Positions 34,779 through 41,566 are shown, counted from the stretch's first letter. The stretch is 59,376 nucleotides of DNA from Bacteroidaceae bacterium (GCA_017532725.1 JAFXIZ010000059.1:1-59376); one strand, 5' to 3'. Numbers and translations are program-made. Notes: generated by a model not told the origin, from the sequence alone.

Positions 34779-35219
34779 CTATTTTCGCAATCGGGCAAGT
34801 ACATAGATAAGTACAAGATTACCCAACAGCATAGCGACAACAGCCCACCACATCCAAGCAGGCACGACCTCAACCCTCTCGCCGGGCATAGGCACAAGGT
34901 AGGGAACAGAGTCGATGGTATGCACTTCGCGCCATTGCAATCGGATGCTGTCACGACGGGGCAACACCGAGAGCGAATGCGACAACACGCCTTGCGCCAC
35001 CGATGCCACGCTATAGGCACGCTCGGCACACAAGACACTCACCGTATCGGCCGTCTTATTTCGCTGCAATTCGCCCTCCGTAACCACCTCTATTACAGTA
35101 TCGCGCGTTACTATCATCTCGCTGCGATGCGACTGTGTGGGTACATACACAGTGCGTGTACACGACAACAAAACAGGCACAACCACCACAGCAAGCAGCA
35201 ACAACATCACACGCCTCAT
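34779..35219 (-). CDS. Lipoprotein with C-terminal TM helix (unimolecular-spanin-like)
   Basis: Lipobox LLSC at residue 20; beta-rich middle with DT/DS repeats; C-terminal WMWWAVVAMLLGNLVLIYVL-ARLRK. ATGA overlap with the endolysin gene. Confidence 0.65.
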   Translation of the reverse strand: MRRVMLLLLAVVVVPVLLSCTRTVYVPTQSHRSEMIVTRDTVIEVVTEGELQRNKTADTVSVLCAERAYSVASVAQGVLSHSLSVLPRRDSIRLQWREVHTIDSVPYLVPMPGERVEVVPAWMWWAVVAMLLGNLVLIYVLARLRK

Positions 35220-35623
35220 TGTCGCAACACCTCCCTCCTATTCTTGCCATTGCGTTTGTAACTGACGTGTATCCACGCAGGCCCCACATCCGAGCCTTGT
35301 TCCCATATCAATTGGTCGAAAGGGAGTTCGAGCAGCACCTCATAGAGCCTCTTATTCATCGCCGGCGAGCCAACACGCACATCGGCAGCCTCGCCCAGCA
35401 GATGCTGGCTATCGCTTACGCCACCCACAGCCTTGTTCAGTTGCTGCGAACGATAACCACTATTGACGCGTATAGGCATCCCTATGCGCTCTCGTGCAGG
35501 GTCGAGTACATTCATCACCAACGCCTTCAAGTTTTCAGCAGCCTCGGCATCGGGTTTATTGCCGATGTGCAATATTCTTGCCACAGCACTGTTGGTCATC
35601 TCGGCCATTGTAAAGTACTTCAT
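35216..35623 (-). CDS. Peptidase M15-type Zn peptidoglycan hydrolase (endolysin-like)
   Basis: KYFT..E, SGYRS..LN.AVGG, SQHLLGEAAD (SxHxxGxAxD), FDQLIWE and WIHVSY motifs; no signal peptide. Confidence 0.88.
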   Translation of the reverse strand: MKYFTMAEMTNSAVARILHIGNKPDAEAAENLKALVMNVLDPARERIGMPIRVNSGYRSQQLNKAVGGVSDSQHLLGEAADVRVGSPAMNKRLYEVLLELPFDQLIWEQGSDVGPAWIHVSYKRNGKNRREVLRQ

Positions 35624-35856
35624 ACACCATCACCCCCTCTCTCATTGCGTGGCACACCATTATACCTACGATAACTATAATCCACACCAAACAACGCTCC
35701 AGCAAACGTCACCACCTCACCAAAAGCCACCAAAACACTACTGTGAATTTCGCCCTCGGGAGCAACCCAAAAGCCCGAAAAGACCAGCACCAAACCGGCT
35801 ATACACATAATGCAGGCAATCCACAACTGCACCGATAATTTATTCATTTTAGACAT
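35620..35856 (-). CDS. Small two-TM membrane protein, putative holin
   Basis: Two hydrophobic helices around P.GEIHSSVL..FGE..TFAGALFG.DY, a charged C-tail and an ATGA overlap with the endolysin. Start uncertain (35856 or 35847). Confidence 0.6.
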   Translation of the reverse strand: MSKMNKLSVQLWIACIMCIAGLVLVFSGFWVAPEGEIHSSVLVAFGEVVTFAGALFGVDYSYRRYNGVPRNERGGDGV

Positions 35857-36015
35857 ATCTTTTTTTTGCACAAAGATGCAATCGCATCTATAAAAATGAA
35901 TGCGATAAAACGAATAGATACATTTGTTACATCACTACTTTATTTTCCTAACAGATATATCGGCCGATAATACAAATTCATACTTCGACAACAAAGTGTA
36001 CCCTAATAGTTGTTA

Positions 36016-36034: not shown

Positions 36035-36210
36035 TATAATAAGACAAAACTAAAACCTATAATGCTAATTTTGTGGTATTAATGGGAATTTTATTAAAAA
36101 AATCCTATTCCTGACCTATTTAACACACGAAGACAAATTATACAGACAATCCAATTGGCAGAAATGCAGATTAAACCTAATTACACAAAAACAAATTAAT
36201 ACGAAAGGAT

Positions 36211-36420
36211 ATGCACATAGGACAACTTATCAAACAACAAGTCGAAAAACAAGGCGTAACCGTATCGTGGTTTGCCCGACAATTACCTTGCAGTCGCACC
36301 AATATCTACAAGATATTCGATCGCGCCACAATAGACACGAGTGTACTTATGCGCATTTCCATCATCTTGAAATACGATTTCTTCAAGCATTATAGCGAAG
36401 ACATCAAGGACAAGATGTAG
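36211..36420 (+). CDS. XRE-family HTH transcriptional regulator
   Basis: HIGQLIK...V.WFA.QL.CSRTNIYKIF...IDT..L.RIS..L.YDFF, a common small Bacteroidales HTH pattern. Confidence 0.85.
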   Translation: MHIGQLIKQQVEKQGVTVSWFARQLPCSRTNIYKIFDRATIDTSVLMRISIILKYDFFKHYSEDIKDKM

Positions 36421-36464: not shown

Positions 36465-36539
36465 TCGACACGGGCAAAATTATACTATATAATATTACTT
36501 TTGCAAACTAACACAATATTTAAACTAATAACAAATACT

Positions 36540-37325
36540 ATGGGCCTTTTCACAAACAAAGAGAGCGAACATTCAATTGAGAAAAATCAATTTGAACAAA
36601 CTATAGAGAACATCAAAGCCGAGTGTGAGAAGTTGATACAAGAAAACAAGGCCAAAGATGAAGAAATCCTCAACCTGAAGAAAACCATCGAGGCATTGAA
36701 AGGACAAGCAGTACCACAAGAAAACACACCCGAGCAACCTATTGTAGCCGAGGAGAAACCCGAAACTCCCGTAGTTGGCACAGACTATGCTCCGGCACTT
36801 GAAGCCATCAACGCCTCAATCAAGGAGTTGACAGCCAAGTCGGACGAACTGAAAACAATGATAGGCTATCGCGATATACAAGATGAGAACGTAAAAGCAA
36901 TGCACAAAGAGTTGGAGAAATTCCGTGGCAACTTCTACGCCAAGATTACCCAACCCTACTTGATGGCAATGCTCGACCTGCACAAACGTTTCTTCGAAAC
37001 CTACGCACACTTCGACCACCTCGACAACAGCGAGGCCGATATGAGCCAACTCTACAGCAACTTAATGGAGCAATTCAAGAGTGCCGTAGATGCTTTGGAA
37101 AATCGCATATACAACGACTTCGGTGTAGAATATTACCTACCTCAAGAGGGTGATGATTTCAACCCCAAACAACATCAGGCATTTGAAGTTATCACAACAG
37201 GTATTGAATCATACGATAAGAAAATAGCAAAAGTTATATACGGAGGCTTCCGCGATATAGACACCGAAAGAATACTTCGCCCCGCACGCATTGCTTGCTA
37301 TAAATATCAATTAATTATAGAATAA
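36540..37325 (+). CDS. GrpE-like nucleotide exchange factor with N-terminal coiled coil
   Basis: C-terminal GDDFNPKQHQA...KIAKVIYGGF....RILRPARI resembles the GrpE beta-domain; directly upstream of an Hsp70 gene. Confidence 0.7.
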   Translation: MGLFTNKESEHSIEKNQFEQTIENIKAECEKLIQENKAKDEEILNLKKTIEALKGQAVPQENTPEQPIVAEEKPETPVVGTDYAPALEAINASIKELTAKSDELKTMIGYRDIQDENVKAMHKELEKFRGNFYAKITQPYLMAMLDLHKRFFETYAHFDHLDNSEADMSQLYSNLMEQFKSAVDALENRIYNDFGVEYYLPQEGDDFNPKQHQAFEVITTGIESYDKKIAKVIYGGFRDIDTERILRPARIACYKYQLIIE

Positions 37326-37349
37326 CAAATAATAAAAACATATATAACT

Positions 37350-38948
37350 ATGGCAAATGACAAAAGCAGAGCCGTTTACGGCATCGACTTGGGTACAACA
37401 TACAGTTGTATCTCACAAGTGGACAAATACGACCAAGCAGTCGTACTTCGCAACTTCGAAGGTGATGCAACAACACCTTCGGTAGTATATTTCGAATCAG
37501 AGTCAAATATGATAGTGGGTAAAGAGGCGAAGAATATGCTTCCCGTTGAGCCCGAAAAAACCGTTTCGTTCATCAAACGTCAGATTGGTAACGATGAGGC
37601 TTTCGACAAGAGCAAAAACACAACTCCGTTCCACTGCGACCCCGTTGAAATTTCGGCTCTTATCTTGAAAAAACTTGTACAAGATGCCAACGACTTGGGC
37701 GACAACCCCGAGCCTATCAAAGACGTCGTTATTACTTGCCCCGCATACTTCGGTAACAAAGAGCGCTTGCAAACCAAGCAAGCCGGTATCAGTGCCGGTC
37801 TTAACGTATTGGGTATCATCAACGAGCCTACAGCAGCCGCTATCTCATACGGTATGAAGGTTGATGAGCGTCGCACTATCTTGGTGTATGACCTTGGTGG
37901 TGGTACTTTCGACGTAACAATCATCGTGGTAAACGGTGGTGCTATCAAGGTTGTGGCTACCGGTGGTGACCACCACTTGGGTGGTGTCGATTGGGATACC
38001 GAGTTGGCTAAATATGTACTCAACACATTCAATTCACAAAACGGTACAGCATACGACTTTGACACACTCTCGGCCAACGCTCGTTTCGACCTCTTGCTCA
38101 ACGCCGAAAACTGGAAAAAGAACCTCTCGGCTCGTCAAACTGCCAAAGTTAACTTCTCATACGAAGGCAAGTCGGTTAACTTCGACCTTCCTCGCGAAAC
38201 ATTCAACGCTATCACCGAGGATCGTTTGAACGAAACAATCGATGCAACACGCAAGATTATCGACATCGCCAAGGAAAAAGGTTACGAAACAATCGACGAA
38301 ATCATCCTCGTGGGTGGTAGTAGCCGTATGCCCCAAATCAAGGATCGCGTAGAGGCTGAGTTTGGCTTGCCTACTCGCTTGAACGACCCCGACGAGTGTG
38401 TTGCCAAGGGTGCTGCCATCTATGCAATGAACGAGGCTTACGCACAAGCCGTTAAAGGTTGGGAAGAGGGTACTATAGATGAAGCCCCCGCACCTCTTAC
38501 CGACGGCAAGAAACGTACTCGCATCGTGAACGTAACAAGTAAGACTTACGGCCTCGGATTGGTTGACAATATGGTAGGTAACCTTATCTTTGCCAACTCT
38601 ACACTCCCCGTATCACGCACTCGTTCATTTGAAACCGTACAAGACGGACAGACAGGTGTTACACTACCTATCTACGAGAGCGACTTTACCGATGAGGAGA
38701 AAGACCAAACCGTAGAGGATCGCTTCTGTAACTTGGCAACCGAAGATATCTCGGTATTGAAAATCACCGGAAATCACCCCAAAGGTACCGAAATCAAGGT
38801 TACATTCAGCATCGACAATGAGGGTATCCTCAGTGTAAATGCTACACGCGATACCGACGTGATAGACTTCAAACTCAAGATTGCCGGTGTGAAAGACGAG
38901 GAAGAGTTGAAGAAGTCGCAAGAATTTATTGCGAACGCAACTGTATAA
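37350..38948 (+). CDS. Atypical Hsp70-family protein (532 aa, no helical lid)
   Basis: GIDLGTTYS, TPSVV, VITCPAYF, INEPTAAA, YDLGGGTFD, LGGVDWD, LVGGSSRMP and PDECVAKGAA motifs. The substrate-binding beta domain ends IKVTFSIDNEGILSV and the protein stops ~35 aa later. Confidence 0.92.
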   Translation: MANDKSRAVYGIDLGTTYSCISQVDKYDQAVVLRNFEGDATTPSVVYFESESNMIVGKEAKNMLPVEPEKTVSFIKRQIGNDEAFDKSKNTTPFHCDPVEISALILKKLVQDANDLGDNPEPIKDVVITCPAYFGNKERLQTKQAGISAGLNVLGIINEPTAAAISYGMKVDERRTILVYDLGGGTFDVTIIVVNGGAIKVVATGGDHHLGGVDWDTELAKYVLNTFNSQNGTAYDFDTLSANARFDLLLNAENWKKNLSARQTAKVNFSYEGKSVNFDLPRETFNAITEDRLNETIDATRKIIDIAKEKGYETIDEIILVGGSSRMPQIKDRVEAEFGLPTRLNDPDECVAKGAAIYAMNEAYAQAVKGWEEGTIDEAPAPLTDGKKRTRIVNVTSKTYGLGLVDNMVGNLIFANSTLPVSRTRSFETVQDGQTGVTLPIYESDFTDEEKDQTVEDRFCNLATEDISVLKITGNHPKGTEIKVTFSIDNEGILSVNATRDTDVIDFKLKIAGVKDEEELKKSQEFIANATV

Positions 38949-38985: not shown

Positions 38986-39017
38986 GAGGTTGTGTCACCC
39001 GACACAACCTCATTTTT
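38986..39017 (+). terminator. Intrinsic terminator-like hairpin between hsp70 and the downstream gene
   Basis: GAGGTTGTGTC-ACCC-GACACAACCTC (perfect 11-bp stem) plus ATTTTT. Confidence 0.7.
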
Positions 39018-39028
39018 AGCAAAAGTAG

Positions 39029-41566
39029 ATGGATAAAACTCTTCTCAAACAGAAAATAGCCGAATGGGGAAAAGCGTGCGAATACTTTGCAAGCCCCGAC
39101 ATACAAAAACAACTCGCAGACGAAGAAAAAAGCGCAATCAAATTCTTGGTGGAGTTTTGGAAGAACAACGAATTTGACAAGGCCACTTGCGAGAAACACA
39201 TCAACACACTCAAAGAATGTGACAAACTACACTCTTCAAATCGCGATATCATTGAGAAGAGTAAAAACTTCAGAGGTATAGCCGCAACATTCTATACCAA
39301 AGATGCTCAAACATTCCACGAATTTCGCACCGAGATGGGCTGGACACGCCAAACGCCTACTCCCGTACCCACTCCTACGCCTACGCCTACACCCACCCCT
39401 ACGCCTCAGCACAACGAAGCGATGATGATGATTAACGTAGAGAAGTGGAGCAAGGCTATACAATACCTGCGCAGTGAGGAGATTACGCCACTGCTTGATG
39501 TTAATGAATTTACTGCCATAGAGCAATTGGCCGATATGTGGCGACGCCCTTCATACCAACCGACTATGAAGGAGGAGGCTGCCGAAATGATTAAGGTGCT
39601 GGTCGATTCACACAAACTGCACTCATCCAATCGTGAGATTATAGAGAAAAGCAAAAGTCTGTGTGGTGTTGCTCGCAAGGTATATGACAACAAAGAGACT
39701 TTCGACGCCTTCAAGAAGGCCATTACACAATATTACAAGGAGAATAAGCCTCCTAAAAAAGAGCCTGTTCCCGATCCCAAGAAGGAGACACCCAAGAAGA
39801 CTCCTACTCCTACCAAGCAAGATAAGGAACTGATATTGCAAGATGTTGTTTTTGCCAACACCACTTACAACAACGACATTATCAAAGACTTTGGCAAGAC
39901 ACTCTTTACCGATACTCAATATATCACCCCTCGCATAACTGTATCGAGCGAATACTACGGCACCGAAACCATTGAAGTAAAACTCCGTTACCCCAATGGC
40001 GAAACAGTACAATACGAAGATGAGGTAGTATTCAAAGGTAAAGGCAATTACATTATATCGGGTTGGGGAAGCAAGACCGGCTCGTCGTACGCATCATACA
40101 GTTATGTAGAGTACACATTCATCTGCCGCGGTAAGAAGTTGTGGCAAGGCCGGGTAACCATCAAGCAAGACCCCAAGAAATTGCCTTACCCCAACATTGT
40201 CGATATCAAGTTTGGAGCAACCGACTATGACGGTAATATTGTGGTAGAACACGGCAATCCCATTCCTACCGGTATCCCCTACCTCAGTCCTATGATTGTG
40301 GTCGATAACAATTTCCGTGGCAGTATAACCCTCGACATCGAATACAAATATGAGAAACGAGGCACGAATAAAACAAATTGCGAAGTGTATATACAAGGCC
40401 CCGGTGAATACAGTCTGTCCGGTTGGGGTAGAAAAGATTGTGGCTTCTATACCGAGCCCGAAACTATCAAATGTACTATCAGTTACGATGGCAAAACGCT
40501 ATATAGCAAGAGCGTAAAGATAGGCAAAGGTGGCAGCCCCCGAAGAGAGACTCGACGACGCAACAGCGATGGCAAAGAATCGGGCTGGACACTATTTAAG
40601 AACAAGATAGAGGATGTAGGCGACTGGTTTGAGGATAAGACCGAAGATCCCGAGTCGGTTACCTCAATCATCTCGGCACTTATCTTTATACTATACGTTA
40701 TATTAGTTATAGGTATATGGATAAGCGAAGGTTTCTGGAGCGCACTATTAGTAGGTGGTATAGGATTCTTCGTAACGGGATTTGTAATCTTAGCCAGCAA
40801 CTTTGTCACAAAGGTAATTCTACACATCCTACGCTTTGTATTCCTCAACGTATGGACATTCCTTATTGCAGTGATAATATTCCTTGCACAAATAATTATT
40901 CCTGCACTCACCTCATTCGGTTCGGGCTTGTTCAGCAATATTGGCGATATGTTTGAGAAGAAGAATAAGACCGAGATGGTCGTTCCCGAAACCCTGCCAT
41001 ACATCTGTACAGCCAAGTCGGGTGTAAACGTACGCCAGTCGCCCTCATCATCGGCAGCCCAAGTGGGTGCTTTGCTTTACGGACAACAGATTGAGGTCTA
41101 TGAAACAAATGGCGACTTTGCAAGAATAAAGTTCGACCACAGCAATGGCAACGATGCTTGGGTAAGCAGCAAATACATCCAAATCGATGAAGATGCTTTT
41201 TTCGCGCAAAACGAGCAACGAAAAGGCGTGAAAACCCTATCGAGTGGCGTGCAATATGAGGTGATAAAAAAGGGTAAAGGCGACAAGCCCCAAGTAAGCG
41301 ACATCGTAAAATGCAACTACACGATGACACTTGTTGACGGCACATTTCTCGATGGCACAACCAGCAGTTCAGGTCCTATCTCTTTTGGCGTAGATAAAGT
41401 AATAGCAGGCTGGAGCGATGCGCTAACCAATATGAAAGAAGGCGCCCAATGGAAGTTATACATACCCTCGCACCTCGCATTTGGCGAGAAAGGTAATAAT
41501 ATGCTTGCGCCCAACACGCCTCTTGTCTGCGAGGTAGAATTGGTGGAAATTGAAGAAAACATATAA
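39029..41566 (+). CDS. Multidomain membrane protein: 2 helical repeats, 2 SGWG beta repeats, ~3 TM helices, SH3b, FKBP-type PPIase
   Basis: KLHSSNR.IIEKSK twice; SGWG twice; hydrophobic block; VNVRQSPS...G.L..G...V...G.FA.I.....AWVS..YI (SH3b); SGVQYEV...GW..AL..M..G....LYIP.HLAFG (FKBP). Confidence 0.8.
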   Translation: MDKTLLKQKIAEWGKACEYFASPDIQKQLADEEKSAIKFLVEFWKNNEFDKATCEKHINTLKECDKLHSSNRDIIEKSKNFRGIAATFYTKDAQTFHEFRTEMGWTRQTPTPVPTPTPTPTPTPTPQHNEAMMMINVEKWSKAIQYLRSEEITPLLDVNEFTAIEQLADMWRRPSYQPTMKEEAAEMIKVLVDSHKLHSSNREIIEKSKSLCGVARKVYDNKETFDAFKKAITQYYKENKPPKKEPVPDPKKETPKKTPTPTKQDKELILQDVVFANTTYNNDIIKDFGKTLFTDTQYITPRITVSSEYYGTETIEVKLRYPNGETVQYEDEVVFKGKGNYIISGWGSKTGSSYASYSYVEYTFICRGKKLWQGRVTIKQDPKKLPYPNIVDIKFGATDYDGNIVVEHGNPIPTGIPYLSPMIVVDNNFRGSITLDIEYKYEKRGTNKTNCEVYIQGPGEYSLSGWGRKDCGFYTEPETIKCTISYDGKTLYSKSVKIGKGGSPRRETRRRNSDGKESGWTLFKNKIEDVGDWFEDKTEDPESVTSIISALIFILYVILVIGIWISEGFWSALLVGGIGFFVTGFVILASNFVTKVILHILRFVFLNVWTFLIAVIIFLAQIIIPALTSFGSGLFSNIGDMFEKKNKTEMVVPETLPYICTAKSGVNVRQSPSSSAAQVGALLYGQQIEVYETNGDFARIKFDHSNGNDAWVSSKYIQIDEDAFFAQNEQRKGVKTLSSGVQYEVIKKGKGDKPQVSDIVKCNYTMTLVDGTFLDGTTSSSGPISFGVDKVIAGWSDALTNMKEGAQWKLYIPSHLAFGEKGNNMLAPNTPLVCEVELVEIEENI
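39352..39406 (+). repeat. Pro-Thr low-complexity linker repeat
   Basis: Degenerate ACN-CCN hexamers encoding TPTPVPTPTPTPTPTPTP. Confidence 0.9.

Follow-up and report, generated by a model that had tools for sequence, protein, structure and literature searches.

Hsp70s are held to need a J-domain, with its motif HPD, as an indispensable trigger (PMC8215388, PMC13254874). An HPN motif abolishes the stimulation, and a designed analogue lacking HPD can work (PMC13254874). Among the closest described counterparts of the system reported here are HscC of E. coli with DjlB and DjlC, an accessory, sporadic Hsp70 encoded beside a membrane-anchored partner and orthogonal to DnaJ (PMC8215388, section 12); the GAP1-N2 theme, predicted computationally, in which one operon encodes a private HSP70 and GrpE set close to the membrane, along with changing components and outer domains of SH3 type (Kaur et al. 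2020, PMC7159879, section 29); and EACC1-protease defence modules, whose DnaK-like domains have no lid and were proposed to sense without refolding (PMC12642450). A 2026 review mentions lid-lacking prokaryotic Hsp70 derivatives of unknown function (PMC13580251). The stretch of Bacteroidaceae DNA analysed here (JAFXIZ010000059.1:1-59376, 59,376 nucleotides, hereafter the window) carries a cassette of three genes in the order grpE-like, lidless Hsp70 and an 845-amino-acid (aa) predicted inner-membrane protein, the partner, which begins with a helical domain (N-domain) present in two copies. The cassette is real, conserved and apparently uncharacterised, and is of the specialised-Hsp70-plus-membrane-partner kind. 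With about even confidence, and from sequence and structure prediction, we propose that it is a private Hsp70 machine in which the cytoplasmic N-domain of the membrane protein would replace a J-domain for recruiting, and possibly triggering, the Hsp70. A literature search, whose reach excluded most subscription papers and supplements, found no account of the cassette, of the N-domain, or of the L125- and L177-type loci introduced below.

The comparison comprised 45 related genome loci, the closest relatives being Bacteroidales metagenome-assembled genomes from animal guts, according to their record titles. The GrpE-like gene lies directly upstream of the Hsp70 gene in 42 loci, two of the three exceptions being contig ends and the third, L049, having no GrpE-like gene. 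The N-domain gene lies directly downstream in 41 (only partly in L029); in L049 the end of the Hsp70 gene and the N-domain continue on another contig, and in L022 and L023 the N-domain is located elsewhere in the genome. Conserved neighbours across the 45 loci are the three cassette genes and, beyond them, lineage-specific genes only. Within the source bacterium's own family the same 10 of 14 genomes hold both Hsp70 and N-domain and the other four neither, although these genomes are kin and not independent. Starting from a distant N-domain clade, two of two metagenome loci fetched have grpE-like and Hsp70 genes upstream, and one of them (L127) encodes two N-domain proteins. In comparisons with three relatives, the Hsp70 shows a ratio of nonsynonymous to synonymous substitution rates of 0.03-0.06, the N-domain one of 0.07-0.11 and the GrpE-like protein one of about 0.11-0.17. 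Linkage, co-occurrence and purifying selection thus bear out the sequence-only reading of the window, which had described a specialised Hsp70 that has an exchange factor to itself and serves the protein encoded next, probably its client, as far as the functional tie between the two is concerned. The pair that it delimited (36540..38948) consists of genuine genes, but as a unit it misses the third and most informative one (39029-41566). The Hsp70 is not the only one in the genome, and the separate canonical set that had been anticipated is present: a DnaK of 636 aa (DVLLLDVTPLSLG) is encoded on contig C60 and grpE-dnaJ on contig C36, the latter DnaJ being the only PF00226 match in the 92.65%-complete genome.

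The cassette Hsp70 (PF00012, E 1e-104) is 34% identical to the DnaK of the source genome. Its residues, numbered as in E. coli DnaK, were mapped on 113 aligned relatives out of 121 sequences, short or oddly sized ones being excluded. The protein displays the actin-fold nucleotide-binding domain (NBD), catalytic residues and beta substrate-binding domain (SBD) of the Hsp70 superfamily; the equivalents of D8, K70, E171, D194, T199 and D201 are invariant in all 113 sequences, in agreement with the intact ATPase motifs first described. In the AlphaFold2 model (mean predicted local distance difference test, pLDDT, 90; template-modelling score, TM, 0.81 to ATP-state DnaK), an intact NBD and a beta SBD are followed by helix A only (predicted helix 517-529), and the chain ends near the position of DnaK residue 523. 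Lengths range from 524 to 539 aa in all 113 relatives, so that the absence of the alpha-helical lid, already recognised in the 532-aa protein, is a family trait and not a truncation artefact. The interdomain linker, TRIVNVTSKTYG, is preceded by an insertion of about 19 residues; the earlier description of an altered linker with an insertion before it therefore stands, but the loss of hydrophobicity is only partial, the L391 and L392 positions remaining V or I. Scores for the canonical DnaK models fall far below their cut-offs (TIGR02350, 326.7 vs 822.55 bits; PRK00290, 334.7 vs 648), and neither the lid nor the DVLLLD linker is present, the latter being replaced by TRIVN. Like DnaK-DnaJ-GrpE, the cassette thus combines an ATPase core, a beta SBD and a GrpE; unlike DnaK, its Hsp70 has no lid or tail, an altered linker, and replacements at the J-docking and several allostery residues. 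HscA identity was rejected (318.6 vs 708.55 bits; isc operon and HscB context absent).

In DnaK, R167 and Q378 are bound by DnaJ D35, the L391 backbone by H33 and P419 by P34 (PMC8215388, section 8), and E206, D211, E217 and D477 position the J-domain (PMC8215388). Throughout the 113 relatives R167 is replaced by A, G or S, Q378 by Y or F and E217 by K or R, and D211 is deleted, V or I at position 391 and P419 being kept in all; in a more divergent set (n=19), E217 is T in three. The changes at D211, E206 and D477 are less informative because these positions also differ in HscC or in the sister lidless group. The J-docking face of the cassette Hsp70 is rebuilt, the canonical J-docking residues being lost. 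In the nucleotide cleft K55 is kept in 112/113 and E267 in 113/113, as expected where GrpE is needed, and R56 and E264 are not kept.

The GrpE-like protein matches PF01025 over residues 89-251 (E 8.8e-10; 38.9 bits, above the cut-off of 25.8). It starts with M-x-x-F, continues with a coiled coil and a Pro/Glu linker, and ends with the GrpE domain. The extra coiled coil and linker reported earlier were found as described at the source locus but vary across the family, whose members range from 182 to 338 aa and in which the Pro/Glu linker is missing from L020 and L021. Nucleotide exchange by this protein on the cassette Hsp70 would be consistent with the gene linkage and the retained K55 and E267. 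The M-x-x-F start, found in 31 of 44 GrpE-like proteins, could, as a speculation, be a tail that competes for the Hsp70 peptide groove (compare PMC8215388, section 9).

With HscC, for which one sequence was used in comparisons and trees, the cassette Hsp70 shares deletions in lobe I of the NBD and of the D211 loop. HscC is 550-580 aa with a shortened lid and keeps R167, Q378, D148 and D393, all replaced in the cassette proteins; its system has true J-domains (HPE) and is thought to be GrpE-free (PMC8215388), whereas the cassette has a GrpE-like protein and a partner without detectable J-domain. The GAP1-N2 theme is reported mainly from actinobacteria and firmicutes, has a DnaJ or TPR fusion as partner and is tied to GTPases (PMC7159879). 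The EACC1-fused DnaK-like domains are about 50% identical to DnaK (PMC12642450), and the cassette protein, less similar, stands alone, with neither protease nor pore-former.

Further counterparts were found in two loci. L125, which emerged from a search of plasmids and lies on the Rhodococcus plasmid NZ_CP070617, encodes a 510-aa lidless Hsp70 that retains R167 and Q378, a GrpE, and a TPR protein that matches PF00226, has the sequence HPNPD and is hydrophobic at its C-terminus. The J(HPN)-TPR protein of this locus (L125:8013-14001) is annotated just as a TPR protein, and the region has an FtsK/SpoIIIE gene and lies beside a TniABQ transposon. L177, detected in one of 301 genomes, has the gene order grpE, lidless Hsp70, J-TPR-membrane protein, the last without HPD, and its Hsp70 carries R167Q and Q378L. 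The L125-type clade comprises at least 120 lidless Hsp70s, of which 115 full-length relatives were compared. This sister group and the cassette family share the truncation point, N13Y/F, a hydrophobic residue at E230 and P396S, none of which occurs in HscC, as well as the pre-linker insertion, K55/E267 and the three protein roles, the gene order being common to L177 and the cassette. They differ in that the L125/L177 type has a recognisable J-domain partner and keeps D148, D393, K/R414 and mostly R167 and Q378 (115 and 112 of 115). Trees join both lidless groups (FastTree 0.999; IQ-TREE quick Shimodaira-Hasegawa-like approximate likelihood ratio 93, unstarred; NBD-only FastTree 0.96, or 0.91 without the long row L120). 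The row L120 itself corresponds to an 843-aa accessory Hsp70 (L120:2914-10234) in an operon with, judged by eye, kinase-like and TerB-like genes. Three states, namely HPNPD with R/Q, no HPD with Q/L, and no J-domain with A/Y, suggest a stepwise decay of the HPD contact across the two loci and the cassette family.

In these related loci a membrane J-protein holds the slot that the N-domain protein occupies in the cassette. The profile of this domain identified 197 representatives (clustered at 50% identity, E<=0.001), and 76 of 150 listed proteins carry C-terminal SH3b, MORN, Sel1, TonB-C, YARHG, WG, Big_2, CD225, rhomboid, kinase or vWA-lipase modules. The partner in the window has SH3b (PF08239, E 8e-13) and FKBP (PF00254, E 6e-19; also PF01346) domains; its beta-rich repeats have no Pfam match, and similar repeats are present in its relatives. 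By a simple hydropathy scan, 100 of 115 N-domain proteins of at least 300 aa have a hydrophobic segment, in none within the first 40 residues, and in 19 of the 24 that carry SH3b or YARHG the segments preceding that domain are odd in number; the N-domain is thus predicted to be cytoplasmic. Two polar residues are conserved: E33, in 97%, which probably caps a helix, and H68, in 91%, which lies at the hairpin tip between helices 3 and 4. Among 194 aligned copies, 169 have the His at the helix tip, and HPD occurs in two, HGN in 31, HSN in 22, HPA in 12, and HSS and HPN in 11 each. Foldseek gave no match to the N-domain model at E<=0.001; the VIA wide fold search gave an MIT domain as best match (Z 7.6, root-mean-square deviation, rmsd, 3.1, 80 aligned) and none at Z>=8, a repeat search reached Z 6.9, and no J-domain or Hsp70 lid was among the matches listed. 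When a homologue was used to search the Atlas, nothing beyond the own family (TM 0.73) and weak TPR-like matches came up, and a PDB sequence search gave only a designed TPR. A tree of N-domain sequences had too little resolution to be informative.

No J-domain was found in open reading frames of the 45 loci or of the window region, which confirms that no HPD-containing J protein is encoded nearby. We consider it unlikely that the N-domain is instead a J-domain descendant that diverged past recognition and co-evolved with the Hsp70 (HPD to HxN, with helices added). Its operon slot equals that of the HPD-damaged J-proteins, a His sits where a helical hairpin turns, with a third, short helix coming after it, and the likeness seen by eye was echoed by HHalign, which aligned H68 with the His of HPD (P 0.009, 25 columns, probability 4.5%). 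In a control, however, at least 10 of 60 block-shuffled profiles outscored the insert-free value of 13.7 (P 0.043), two of the 60 scoring above 16.8, and this signal was therefore discounted. The degenerate J-domains of L125 and L177 were detected easily by the identical method (probability 97% and 94%), the families listed for 52 N-domain members include no PF00226 match at E<=1, none of the 150 listed N-domain proteins contains PF00226, and the N-domain has no YYEILG helix I. With a profile score inside the range of the shuffled controls and no J-fold among the matches listed, J-domain identity was not accepted. A genome holding the cassette also encodes, at L173:28-2028, a membrane protein of several passes that matches PF00226 weakly and contains no HPD.

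According to a second alternative, which we regard as rather improbable, the membrane protein is a dedicated client of a J-independent Hsp70 with a loose clamp and high basal ATPase, and the N-domain is a degron-like handle by which it is folded, assembled or regulated. The K414-D326 clamp is indeed gone as a pair (A in 112/113 and I in 107/113), K414I in DnaK raises basal ATPase 25-fold (PMC8215388, section 6), and a constant handle on variable bodies would also suit a tag. Against this stand the replacement by T or N, in 112/113, of D148, which DnaK needs for substrate stimulation (PMC8215388), the well-folded N-domain bundle (pLDDT 92), which is not an extended peptide, and the slot held by J-proteins in related loci. 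The partner had at first been taken for the probable client; its constant helical domain on interchangeable modules, in a J-protein slot, fits a co-chaperone or adaptor better. Further allostery positions are changed (D393 to N, N147 to G, D481 to E), P143, R151, V440 and L484 being kept.

Even less probable is that the N-domain acts in trans as the lid that the Hsp70 lacks, or binds the NBD as a BAG-like bundle. It resembles DnaK helix C by eye, its gene starts right after the truncation, and BAG domains were matched at Z 6.2 (rmsd 4.0, 72 aligned). That Z value lies within the helical-bundle background, the lid profile did no better than its reversed control (P 0.076 vs 0.091), for which reason the likeness to the lid was discounted, a GrpE is already there, and the hairpin before the third gene suggests less partner than Hsp70.

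Under the favoured explanation, recruitment by the N-domain, DnaJ would be unable to drive the lidless Hsp70, which would be insulated from the housekeeping system. The membrane-bound N-domain adaptor would recruit the ATP-bound Hsp70, its His-tipped helix 3-helix 4 hairpin docking at the remodelled linker surface. The lidless Hsp70 may then bind and release peptide fast, so as to grip or pull a client close to the membrane instead of refolding protein in bulk, and would be reset by the GrpE-like protein, while interchangeable outer modules (SH3b, FKBP, TonB-C, YARHG, MORN, Sel1) would link the cycle to the cell envelope. The likeliest client candidates are the beta-rich repeats of the partner itself or an adjacent membrane complex. 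More doubtful, and offered tentatively, is the full proposal that a non-J domain triggers the ATPase: the HPD contact would have decayed stepwise, and a five-helix modular adaptor would couple peptidoglycan or envelope sensing across the inner membrane to the orthogonal Hsp70.

Several observations weigh against this explanation. The loss of D148, D393, and K414 with D326 may mean that the Hsp70 needs no trigger or is uncoupled. P419 is D in three of the 19 more divergent Hsp70s, and the tip His is missing or gapped in 25 of 194 N-domain copies, the L126 partner included. L043 has GrpE-like and Hsp70 genes, and two profiles found no N-domain in its genome. The topology of the partner derives from a simple hydropathy scan, and the sister-group context from two loci (L125, L177). 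The lidless sister grouping has a stem of 2.17 changes per column with unstarred support, and the unrelated long branch L120 joined the cassette family in the FastTree run on NBD plus SBD. As to membership in HscC, an early concern, HscC features are absent and the best trees place the family elsewhere, but a grouping with HscC is not rejected by the approximately unbiased test (p 0.06). Finally, in 15 of the 41 loci where Hsp70 and partner genes are adjacent, the spacer is short and hairpin-free.

The cassette is rare. None of 400 phylum-sample genomes and, besides the source genome, one of 400 order-sample genomes contained it, nor did any of 300 genomes sampled around G1137, apart from G1137 itself; 400 genomes of the class yielded just DnaK-level matches and no cassette-Hsp70 member. 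Such patchiness is one of the points in favour of a stress- or invader-sensing conflict module, in which the Hsp70 would not refold misfolded or foreign proteins but sense them and switch a membrane effector. Hypervariable C-termini including kinase, rhomboid, vWA-lipase and CD225, the position of L125 beside an FtsK-family gene and a transposon, and the GAP1-N2 (PMC7159879, section 29) and EACC1 (PMC12642450) precedents likewise suit it. Yet PADLOC matches neither Hsp70 nor partner, and the conserved neighbourhood shows no GTPase, GAP1, protease or toxic effector, the zinc-ribbon GTPase, GAP1 and FNIII-DnaJ of the GAP1-N2 theme being seen in none of the 45 loci, although no GAP1 profile was run. 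The flanks are mostly housekeeping genes, and the family is absent from the viral contigs searched and, above 38% identity, from the plasmids searched. As a separate account we hold this to be quite improbable; a conflict role is compatible with N-domain recruitment as its purpose rather than its mechanism.

The cassette provides a small, soluble three-component test of whether the J-domain has been replaced in nature and of the role of a lidless Hsp70. If N-domain recruitment is true, a chaperone pair orthogonal to the housekeeping one is gained, together with a domain newly known to recruit Hsp70. Should the N-domain prove inert, the cassette would still present a natural Hsp70 that is independent of J-domains and whose allosteric network has been rewired.

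Features of the cassette, with coordinates counted from the first nucleotide of the window
Feature	Coordinates	Strand	Evidence
GrpE-like nucleotide exchange factor, 261 aa	36540..37325	+	PF01025, linkage, dN/dS (ratio of substitution rates)
Lidless Hsp70, 532 aa	37350..38948	+	PF00012, residue map, AlphaFold2 model, dN/dS
11-bp hairpin then T-run, predicted partial terminator	38986..39011	+	z -4.6, 0/200 shuffles
Partner protein, 845 aa, predicted inner-membrane	39029..41566	+	Pfam matches, hydropathy; directly 3' of Hsp70 in 41/45 loci
Helical N-domain copy 1, about 105 aa, five helices, E33 and H68 conserved	39029..39346	+	alignment, model pLDDT 92, 197 relatives
Helical N-domain copy 2	39410..39733	+	31% identical to copy 1; profile E 9e-44
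Two beta-rich repeats (about residues 268-500), predicted cytoplasmic	39830..40528	+	sequence; boundaries by eye
Three predicted transmembrane segments (547-565, 571-589, 606-624)	40667..40900	+	hydropathy scan
SH3b (664-718) and FKBP-type prolyl isomerase (720-839), predicted periplasmic	41018..41545	+	PF08239, PF00254, PF01346

Long, hairpin-bearing spacers between the Hsp70 and partner genes occur in 26 of the 41 adjacent loci, as judged from minimum-energy folds without shuffles. A hairpin and T-run at this position would yield less partner than Hsp70, as with catalytic J-proteins. RNA contigs (four runs of one study) cover parts of the three cassette genes, and as neighbouring genes and spacer DNA are covered at like depth, they do not establish transcription of the cassette. 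A promoter scan did not rise above chance (14 vs 11.9); the motif TAnnTTTG has a match at 36496, one of 64 in the window.

Variant layouts were also observed. L016, L034 and L127 have two N-domain genes each, in L036 the lidless Hsp70 gene is present twice in tandem, flanked by grpE-like and partner genes (L036:6338-9587), and in L043 an Hsp20 gene comes after the lidless Hsp70 (L043:3102-3551). A genome holding the cassette encodes in addition a stand-alone N-domain membrane protein 3' of a WYL gene (L176:1501-2196). In P0204, a single sequence that recombination or faulty assembly may have produced, the N-domain is fused to a piece of the linker and beta domain of the cassette Hsp70 (E 1e-17). 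L037, L039 and L040, titled Flexilinea, bacterium and Bulleidia, are Prevotella-type cassettes with matching flanking genes; these records may be mistitled or their contigs wrongly binned, and no spread beyond Bacteroidota is claimed.

Upstream of the cassette in the window, and divergent from it (34779-35871, minus strand), lies a trio of holin-like, peptidase M15 and lipoprotein genes resembling a lysis-cassette remnant, which is found in 9 of the 45 loci and for which the labels holin and spanin are our presumption. A 70-aa helix-turn-helix gene just 5' of grpE-like (36208-36420, plus strand) probably lies outside the cassette, since it occurs in one of the 45 loci and has a paralogue on C82. 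In ten loci, of Prevotella type (L019, L020, L021, L035, L037-L040, L049 and L050), a gene for a membrane-bound AraC regulator is located upstream, and Prevotella-type loci have three more conserved genes nearby, two without Pfam match and one encoding a DUF1963 protein.

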